Shown in pieces: positions 19,428 to 20,448 of a DNA stretch of 64,000 bases. Location of the stretch: positions 27,048,907 through 27,112,906 of the forward strand of contig NW_026988463.1 in assembly GCF_030222135.1 (NCBI RefSeq), given 5' to 3'. Within the stretch, counting starts at the first letter, position 1, and each line of letters starts with the position of its first letter. The notes under the pieces were generated by a model. That model had not been told where the DNA came from, made no database searches, and was given only the letters and a program-made list of their open reading frames with translations. This stretch comes from Aotus nancymaae (lineage: Eukaryota). A program made the position numbers and the translations under genes.

Positions 19428-19580
19428 AAGTTGACAATGGAGAGCATGACTTAAAATCTCATGTAATGATGTTAAAGAGATGATAAAAGTTAGAGGTATT
19501 CTGTGGCGCAAATGTCATTACTGGATCAGGTAAGGATTATCAATTGGTGCGTCATTGATAGGTAACTGCCTTAATACAGT
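19428..19580 (+). repeat. Inverted-repeat arm A (pairs with 20296-20448)
   Basis: The reverse complement of this arm matches arm B at roughly 90% identity over about 150 bp. Confidence 0.8.
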
Positions 19581-19794
19581 GGCCAAATAATACCATATGC
19601 GTTACTTTATTACAATCCAAGGGTCCCTTTTTCCTCACGATGCTGGCTTGTTAAAGAGACTGCCAGTTGTCCTGCACAGTGACCTCTTTCCAAATGGGCC
19701 TGGTTGTTTACTCCCTGTATCATTTGGTTTGTTACCCAACCTACCCTTAATTTCCTACAAACCAGACTGTAGATTTAAACTGACTGATATTGGC

Positions 19795-20100
19795 TAGGCA
19801 CAGTGGCTCACACCTGTAATCCCAGCATTTTGGGAGACCGAGGCGGGTGGATCTCTTGAAGTCAGGAGTTTGAGACCAGCCTGGCCAACATGGTGAAACT
19901 CCGTCTCTATTAAAAATAGAAAAATTTGCTGGGAGTGGTGGTGGGCACCTGTAATCCCAGTTACTCAAGAGGCTGAGGCAAGAGAATCACTTGAACCTGG
20001 GAGGCGGAGGTTGTAGTGAGCCAAGACTGCACCATTGCACTCCAGCCTGGGCAACAGAGCAAGACTTCTTCTCAAAATAAGTAAATAAAATAATAAAATA
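19795..20100 (+). repeat. Alu SINE inserted between the inverted-repeat arms
   Basis: Alu consensus; TSD actgatatt on both sides. Confidence 0.9.
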
Positions 20101-20295
20101 AAATTACTGATATTAAACATTTTGGTTAGAATACATTTTAGGTAATGTTATGTATGTATTTCACATTAGGTCACATCGAACAACCTGTAATATTGTTAAT
20201 ATGATTCGTCATTAATGACGTTCATAATTGGCCCCTGGATATAGGGGATGGTGGTTTGATCCCTCTATCATTGTTACATTTCCCTGTTGCCAACT

Positions 20296-20448
20296 GTGAA
20301 GTAATGCATATGGTATTATTTGGCCACTGAATTAAGGCAGTTACCTATCAATGACACATCAATTGATAATCCTTACCTGAACCAGTAATTACATTTGTGC
20401 CATAGAATACCTATTACTCTTATCATCTCTTCAACATTATTACATGAG
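20296..20448 (-). repeat. Inverted-repeat arm B
   Basis: gcatatggtattatttggccactgaattaaggcagttacctatcaatgac... is the reverse complement of arm A. Confidence 0.8.

Follow-up and report, generated by a model that had tools for sequence, protein, structure and literature searches.

A long inverted repeat in intron 2 of primate KCTD13, most likely the relic of a single local template switch in an anthropoid ancestor

The inverted repeat and its setting in KCTD13

The sequence analysed here, referred to below as the window, is a stretch of 64,000 nucleotides from Aotus nancymaae, and it carries KCTD13, a dosage-sensitive gene of 16p11.2, on its forward strand. The coding exons lie at 12700-12945, 15029-~15200, ~26170-26263, ~26351-26404, 27350-~27550 and ~30700-30928, and the translation of exon 1 matches the BTB domain of KCTD13/BACURD1 (PDB 4UIJ, E = 2e-32). 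Since exon 1 ends at 12945, exon 2 occupies 15029-~15200 and exon 3 starts at ~26170, the inverted repeat described below falls within intron 2 and is part of the transcribed strand, in agreement with the location given in the initial annotation of this region.

Gapped alignment pairs a left arm at 19427-19607 (181 nt) with a right arm at 20299-20484 (186 nt). The two are identical, as reverse complements, at 166 of 186 positions with one 5-nt indel, a similarity far beyond chance (BLAST E = 1e-58) that leaves no doubt about the existence of the repeat. Identity over ungapped columns is 91.7%, within a range of 89-92% for the Aotus nancymaae window, which agrees with the roughly 90% estimated at first sight and lies well above the 75% that had been set beforehand as a floor. 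Because of the indel, an ungapped repeat search splits the repeat into two pieces (19455-19607 with 20299-20451, at 92%, and 19427-19468 with 20443-20484), which gapped alignment merges into one pair. The initial annotation had thus located the pair correctly, but its arms of about 150 bp were too short: the ranges 19428-19580 and 20296-20448 each fall some 30 nt short of the true 181-186 nt and are not exact partners, and an end at 20448 loses 36 nt of the right arm. Likewise, the spacer, put at about 715 bp, measures 691 nt, of which about 368-377 nt remain when the Alu is subtracted, and the whole unit comes to 1058 nt. The features of the unit, all on the forward strand except the last, are as follows.

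19425..19426, TG dinucleotide at the outer junction, between target sequence ending in ...GGTTATC and the copy, from the multi-species alignment of the insertion site
19427..19607, left arm, reverse complement of 20299-20484
19608..19791, left part of the spacer, ancestral intron, aligning to lemur 5911-6092, squirrel 5079-5209 and raccoon dog 6217-6357
19783..19791, left copy of the Alu target-site duplication (TSD), ACTGATATT, from a repeat search; the same TSD occurs in human
19792..20105, AluS-like element with an A-rich tail, from Rfam Metazoa_SRP half-matches
20106..20114, right copy of the Alu TSD, ACTGATATT, from a repeat search
20115..20298, right part of the spacer, ancestral intron, aligning to lemur, squirrel and raccoon dog
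20299..20484, right arm, single-copy and syntenic in non-anthropoid mammals
20486..20530, reverse strand, old L1 ORF2 remnant (EELDYIKIKSF), adjoining the right arm as context and not part of the repeat

The spacer element has the 7SL-derived dimer, the A-rich tail and the flanking TSDs of a retroposon, which bears out the earlier reading of an Alu with its own TSD: the two Metazoa_SRP half-matches in Rfam lie at 19793-19909 and 19928-20075, and the element shows 87% identity to an AluSx consensus versus 82% to an AluJb consensus. In the human sequence, the orthologous Alu and its identical TSD could be read off directly, the Callithrix alignment is continuous through it, and in Sapajus its presence was deduced only from the spacing of the flanks, the Alu having been masked in that comparison. 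Lemur and squirrel have empty sites. The AluS element entered the spacer before the split of New World and Old World lineages, and in human a second Alu has since inserted within it. Elsewhere in the same intron there are several further inverted Alu pairs.

The L1 remnant beside the right arm is 82% identical to an L1M 3' consensus over 44 nt, in a blastn alignment that ends exactly at 20485, and a tblastn search with an ORF2 C-terminus detected it in the lemur (E = 0.004) as well as in the window (E = 0.03). A neighbouring old L1 ORF2 piece at 17600-18131, recovered by tblastn at E = 3e-13, served as a positive control. Smith-Waterman and blastn comparison with the L1M 3' consensus found the right flank only, and neither the arms nor the spacer; tblastn with the ORF2 C-terminus likewise matched the flank and neither arm. 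A lenient colinear alignment of arms and spacer to L1 scored 413 versus 358 +/- 30 for shuffled sequences, which is not significant, nhmmer with multi-species profiles returned nothing above decoys for an L1 origin of arms or spacer, and phmmer of the arm translations found no match in PDB. The arm may nevertheless derive from an old L1, although motif matches seen by eye are no reliable guide here, and the initial statement that the arms are not L1 is accordingly a tentative one. The coincidence of the repeat edge with the L1 boundary was at one point read as a transposon insertion boundary, a reading that was dropped on finding the boundary to be ancestral in the outgroups.

Orthologous introns and the source of the left arm

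Orthologous loci were identified by a homology search with the spliced KCTD13 protein together with cluster listings, and the genes were fetched with their introns. Besides the window, the anthropoid loci compared were those of Callithrix (L001), Sapajus (L005) and human (T2T-CHM13, L003), and the outgroup loci were those of raccoon dog (L002), Lemur catta (L006), tenrec (L007) and ground squirrel (L008). Both arms are present in all four anthropoids; the human ones lie at 7508-7682 and 8775-8954 of L003, a locus on the reverse strand of T2T chr16 within 30,188,508-30,209,670. The lemur, squirrel and raccoon dog introns, which align along their whole length, hold a single arm copy in the position and orientation of the right arm (lemur ~6558-6735, squirrel ~5429-5599, raccoon dog 7083-7274; 71-75% identity), and it is only this copy, on the opposite strand, that the left arm of the window matches in these species; a search of the raccoon dog region found no inverted repeat. 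The tenrec intron 2 aligned only at the L1 piece at 17911-18130 and along a short stretch at 19250-19304, and thereby covers neither the insertion site nor the arms.

At the position of the left arm, lemur, squirrel and raccoon dog all have a clean empty site. Here the outgroups read ...GGTTATC followed directly by ATGTTC..., and the anthropoids ...GGTTATCTG followed by CAAGTTGAC...; in a wider view, outgroup ATCTGGTTATC runs on into ATGTTCTGTAAGTCTTGTCCAATCC, and anthropoid ATCTGGTTATC is followed by TG, by the copy, which opens with CAAGTTGAC and after 181 nt closes with ATGCGTTACTT, and then by TATTACAATCC. Target sequence therefore resumes at TATTACAATCC, the first bases of the left part of the spacer (from 19608). 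The multi-species alignment further shows that the empty site of the three outgroups contains about 11-14 nt (ATGTTCTNTAAGTC-like) that are missing from the anthropoids, and the TG at the outer junction may be filler or what is left of the target's ATG. No TSD was found in this alignment around either the left arm or the whole unit. Judged from these alignments, the segment of the right arm was copied in inverse orientation, in anthropoids alone, to give the left arm, and the right arm and spacer are ancestral.

As only the left arm was inserted, these data establish a local inverted duplication, the second of the two origins initially proposed, and refute the first, a non-autonomous DNA transposon with long terminal inverted repeats (TIRs). 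Under that reading, the unit 19427-20484 would be a MITE-like element with TIRs of ~180 bp that was inserted whole. Its anatomy is indeed similar to that of MITEs and TIR DNA transposons such as the human MER elements, with inverted ends of ~180 nt around a non-palindromic, non-coding interior of ~370 nt, and the outgroup right arm reads CCATTGTCAACTG at its outer end, with a complement, CAGTTGAC..., that may resemble the start of Tigger/MER2 TIRs. Lemur, squirrel and raccoon dog, however, keep one supposed TIR and the interior as single-copy, syntenic sequence, and it is the other TIR alone that is absent, as an empty site. In addition, no direct repeat flanks the unit (left flank ...ggttatctg, right flank aaaaactttt...), and blastn at two stringencies found no second copy of arms, interior or flanks in the 64-kb window. 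A 20-mer identical in both arms had 0 matches in two collections of genome and metagenome contigs, which hold little primate DNA, and the joined stop-free translations of the element gave no matches in a protein-space search for spurious open reading frames of paralogous copies. Taken together, the empty-site pattern and the missing TSD make a transposon extremely unlikely.

The source of the copy was traced in a joint alignment of the right arms of seven species with the reverse-complemented left arms of the four anthropoids. The left arms carry the substitutions and indels that set the anthropoid right arms apart from the outgroups, and they are 88-95% identical to anthropoid right arms and only 67-76% identical to the outgroup orthologues. 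They were therefore copied from this locus, late on the anthropoid stem. Two independent insertions of one interspersed family in opposite orientation, for example of an old L1 fragment, would fit the L1 ORF2 remnant that adjoins the right arm. The anthropoid ancestor, however, had identical arms, although the right arm and its outgroup orthologues differ by ~25-29%, and since the left arm bears the lineage-specific states of the right arm, it was copied from the locus itself and not from a family consensus, which reduces the probability of independent insertions to next to nothing.

Across ~170 comparable columns, not one difference between left and right arms is common to all four anthropoids. 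The differences consist instead of 32 singletons, a few changes in either arm that are specific to New World monkeys, and lineage-specific indels, from which it follows that the arms were identical when catarrhines and platyrrhines split. With ~340 arm sites free of substitution, the event probably took place only a few million years before that split, although gene conversion could instead have held the arms identical until then and so hidden an older origin. In this sample, whose only non-anthropoid primate is the lemur, the firm bracket for the event runs from after the strepsirrhine split to before the platyrrhine/catarrhine split. In absolute terms, the duplication can be estimated at roughly 45 million years ago.

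Gene conversion is also what a much older repeat would call for. In that scenario, a boreoeutherian repeat would have lost its left arm in lemur, squirrel and carnivore, with gene conversion keeping the anthropoid arms alike, and the zero fixed arm differences at the anthropoid ancestor could in principle have arisen in this way. This nevertheless needs three independent deletions with identical boundaries, and the same extra 11-14 nt must have arisen in all three outgroups. Moreover, after the anthropoid split there is no sign of gene conversion, the arms diverging independently in each lineage. An ancient origin is, on this evidence, scarcely credible.

Mechanism of the inverse copy

A whole hairpin can arise in a primate intron from one template switch, as has been documented (PMC10710096). 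Under the four-point model, mutations of the 1-4-3-2 order swap a short stretch for the reverse complement of nearby sequence and in doing so create inverted repeats, and they make up 31% of human-chimp events (PMC5453318). The KCTD13 repeat has the same form. What was inserted reads as the reverse complement of a neighbouring stretch of the same locus; a short ancestral stretch of ~11-14 nt was exchanged for a 181-nt copy, with the return close to the departure; and the repeat was perfect at birth, as judged by the zero shared differences in ~170 columns of four anthropoids. In its dimensions, the event exceeds the short-range class, in which fragments measure tens of nt and the template lies within the same fork: the fragment is ~186 nt long and its template was ~370 nt away before the Alu arrived. 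The jump spanned ~370 nt, or ~690 nt if the Alu was already in place. Given this size, we file the event as a long-range variant of the template-switch class.

The duplication was most likely replicative, to go by its geometry, and we consider it probable, with good confidence, that the repeat is the relic of a single mutation by a switch-and-return template switch, the arms of which have since been decaying neutrally. Synthesis would have left its template at about 19426 and copied the complementary strand backwards from 20484 to 20299, after which the polymerase would have returned ~12 nt past its departure point, so that ~11-14 nt of the target were replaced by the 181-nt copy. The product at birth would have been a perfect inverted repeat, with the left copy ~370 nt upstream of its source, and both arms would thereafter have decayed independently at the neutral rate. 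In terms of the four-point model, this would be an event of type 1-4-3-2 within the FoSTeS/MMBIR family, with an unusually long fragment.

Both relatives of the event show where it departs from what has been described. Template-switch mutations (TSMs; Loytynoja & Goldman 2017, PMC5453318; Walker et al. 2021, PMC7954356) share the inverse-copy replacement, the perfect repeat made in one step and the absence of a TSD, but the published fragments measure ~14 to a few tens of nt with a template within the same fork, as opposed to ~186 nt here, and the KCTD13 repeat differs from them also in the minimal microhomology at its switch points. FoSTeS and MMBIR (Hastings et al. 2009, PMC2621351) have in common with it a switch with little or no homology, an inverted duplicate and junctions that show microhomology or are blunt; these models, however, were made for pathogenic copy-number changes of kb to Mb that are often complex, whereas here there is one fixed event of ~0.2 kb.

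The microhomology is weak, which leaves some probability to a route through break repair. At the inner junction, ~2-5 imperfect nt (CTT/CTTTA) are possibly common to source and target, and the outer junction has 0-1 nt of microhomology plus the TG. The same product could have come from a double-strand break at 19426 followed by microhomology-mediated or polymerase-theta-type end joining, or by aborted SDSA, in which one end invades, or snaps back on, the nearby opposite strand, copies ~186 nt and is rejoined with a small deletion. The insertion comes with a deletion of 11-14 nt, with what may be a filler of 2 nt (TG) and with at most a few nt of microhomology, hallmarks that it shares with templated-insertion end joining. 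The insertions templated in end joining are usually a few to a few tens of nt long, however, and a clean, single inverted copy of 186 nt with a return within 14 nt of the departure is what switch-and-return replication predicts, even if the sequence alone cannot separate the two. We regard break repair as an unlikely, though the most serious, alternative to the switch-and-return template switch.

Predicted RNA fold, decay of the arms and meaning

The predicted fold of the transcribed strand is dominated by the repeat, which supports in silico the hairpin capacity that had been attributed to it. In ViennaRNA, the duplex of the sense-RNA arms has a dG of -271 kcal/mol, compared with -73.5 +/- 4.2 kcal/mol for shuffled arms and -259 kcal/mol for the antisense duplex. 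In the minimum-free-energy fold, 172 of the 181 bases of the left arm are paired to the right arm, within the 1058-nt unit as well as within a 2.3-kb context that includes neighbouring Alus. The window stem has 166 Watson-Crick and 6 G-U pairs, along with 9 mismatches and 5 positions left unpaired; the Sapajus and human stems are more degraded, and the number of non-wobble mismatches ranges from 9 to 18 per species. According to this model, the pre-mRNA should transiently form a stem of ~180 bp closing a loop of 691 nt, which would then be lost with the intron.

A long, stable duplex in the transcribed strand is what ADAR acts on, and the predicted stem is a plausible ADAR substrate. Inverted pairs of intronic Alus are the main human dsRNAs and ADAR substrates. 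Like them, the KCTD13 arms would form a long, imperfect intramolecular duplex in the pre-mRNA between copies a few hundred nt apart; Alus, however, are a dispersed family, whereas the KCTD13 arms are sequence unique to the locus and so pair only with each other. By analogy, the most likely present behaviour of the repeat is that of a transient dsRNA, perhaps ADAR-edited like the inverted Alu pairs of the same intron.

Two further structures that had been suggested for the repeat fit less well. Cruciform extrusion in duplex DNA, for which spacers of a few to tens of bp are characteristic, is not expected with a spacer of 691 nt and is unlikely here, the spacer having measured at least 368 nt even at birth. 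A pri-miRNA has a stem of ~35 bp and a short loop. A miRNA-like precursor is accordingly unlikely for a stem of ~180 bp with a 691-nt loop, and an Rfam search at E <= 1 over 19200-20700 returned Alu-derived matches only and none in the arms. The primate miRNA hairpins that were born by TSM (Monttinen et al. 2023, PMC10710096) likewise have stems of ~35 bp and short loops, from which the KCTD13 repeat differs in the size of both, in the lack of any Rfam or miRNA similarity and in showing no sign of selection.

This last point was assessed by comparing the arms with their flanks. Flank divergence from the window is 3.2% in Sapajus, 3.6% in Callithrix and 7.4% in human, values that mark the window as New World monkey sequence and not human. 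The arms diverge at a similar rate between window and human (6.6% vs 7.4%, p = 0.65) and between window and Callithrix (4.1% vs 3.6%, p = 0.65), and faster than the flanks between window and Sapajus (6.3% vs 3.2%, p = 0.009). The lineages have also acquired indels of their own: the left arms of New World monkeys share a 5-nt deletion, and the human left arm has lost 13 nt and, at its inner end, carries three tandem copies of a 36-nt unit. With flank-like divergence and lineage-specific indels, there is no indication of selection. From the comparison of these four species, we consider the repeat functionally neutral, and at the RNA level we infer such neutrality from their sequence evolution only.

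A selected RNA hairpin, be it a regulatory or ADAR-recruiting dsRNA, a precursor of endo-siRNA or miRNA, or a modulator of KCTD13 splicing, would be in keeping with the position of the repeat in the sense-strand intron of an expressed gene, with the very stable predicted duplex that dominates the local fold, and with its retention for more than ~40 Myr in platyrrhines and catarrhines. There is also one paired position, at window 20403, where A-U has changed to G-C by way of a G-U intermediate in Sapajus; it is the only such site, and unremarkable among ~60 changes. Against selection, divergence in the arms equals or exceeds that in the flanks, the indels described above have been tolerated in each lineage, including those in human, non-wobble mismatches have accumulated in every species, and stem and loop, without an Rfam match, are unlike those of a pri-miRNA. 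Retention over 40 Myr is, moreover, expected of neutral intronic DNA. A selected hairpin is therefore very unlikely as an explanation. Nothing suggests a functional consequence for KCTD13, and because both arms lie in the same intron and bracket no exon, no effect of the repeat on circular RNA is expected.

A bolder proposal would combine the mechanism with function: an exceptionally long template switch would have made a hairpin in the anthropoid ancestor whose dsRNA may hold a lineage-specific role, for example as a dsRNA of strong ADAR1 or innate-immune relevance, as a source of endo-siRNA, or in the processing of intron 2. We give this proposal only a slim chance; if true, no clean TSM-type event on record would be longer than the KCTD13 repeat, which would also be a case of a structured RNA born de novo.

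Returning to the neutral relic of a template switch, the KCTD13 repeat is a new and unusually long case of the known class of template-switch inverted duplications that create hairpins, with a copied fragment several-fold longer than those of catalogued short template-switch mutations. It offers a clean and datable one-step origin of a long, hairpin-capable repeat through local inverse copying, with no transposon involved, and such events can easily be mistaken for TIR elements in annotation. The KCTD13 case also indicates that an inverted repeat in an intron of an expressed gene can last for more than ~40 Myr under neutral decay. As such, it may help to calibrate tools for TSM detection, as well as screens in which intronic inverted repeats are flagged as candidates for functional RNA.

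Old L1 sequence around the inverted repeat

The inverted repeat lies within KCTD13 intron 2, and two old L1 fragments are found in its vicinity. These and the other annotated features are as follows.

Features of the window
12700-30928, KCTD13 exons
17600-18131, minus strand, remnant of the C-terminal part of ORF2 of an old L1
18839-19160, Alu of young appearance, with a target-site duplication, AAAAGCACC, and a long A-tail
20486-20607, minus strand, remnant of the C-terminal part of ORF2 of an old L1

The two L1 remnants share the same orientation and are roughly colinear in consensus coordinates, the former running from about position 55 on and the latter up to position 47. 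Once the Alus and the left arm are subtracted, they lie ~1.15 kb apart, and this intervening stretch, which is common to squirrel, lemur, raccoon dog and the window, may represent an ancient insertion into a single L1. The outer end of the right arm (window 20472-20484) reads CCATTGTCAACTG in its non-primate orthologues, at ~7262-7274 of the raccoon dog locus and ~5590-5599 of the squirrel locus. Its complement, CAGTTGACAATGG, bears a putative resemblance to the start of the terminal inverted repeat of Tigger/MER2-type elements, CAGTTGAC...; a matching opposite end was not found.

A small near-perfect palindrome (18171-18206, centre ccatgccccggggcatgg) was also observed within the old L1 remnant. 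Separately, a candidate likeness to a MIR core, identified by eye, spans 18205-18640 (cctctaagcctgtaaaatggg...gagattcagatgag) and is split by an antisense Alu at 18300-18596.

Changes among the primate loci

The window is not human and most probably belongs to a further New World monkey: its divergence around the repeat is 3.2% relative to Sapajus, 3.6% relative to Callithrix and 7.4% relative to human T2T. Its KCTD13 protein probably also differs at several residues from the human sequence. About 134 nt of old L1 sequence (window 18069-18202) are kept in Sapajus and human and are missing in Callithrix (L001, its KCTD13 locus, 6338-6347), a lineage-specific deletion. Since the Alu at 18839-19160 is missing at the orthologous sites of Callithrix, Sapajus and human, its insertion is specific to the lineage of the window, either the species or its clade.

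In human (T2T chr16, L003 7508-7760 and 7941-8582), 13 nt are deleted from the left arm, whose inner junction is spanned by a 36-nt unit in tandem triplication. A second Alu is nested within the spacer Alu, and the human spacer is therefore ~1.09 kb long.

Inverted Alu pairs flanking the repeat

The repeat is flanked by several further inverted pairs, I2-I7, formed by Alus (window 19000-21000; 58-133 nt, 74-90% complementarity). These pairs would provide many alternative dsRNA-forming partners within KCTD13 intron 2.
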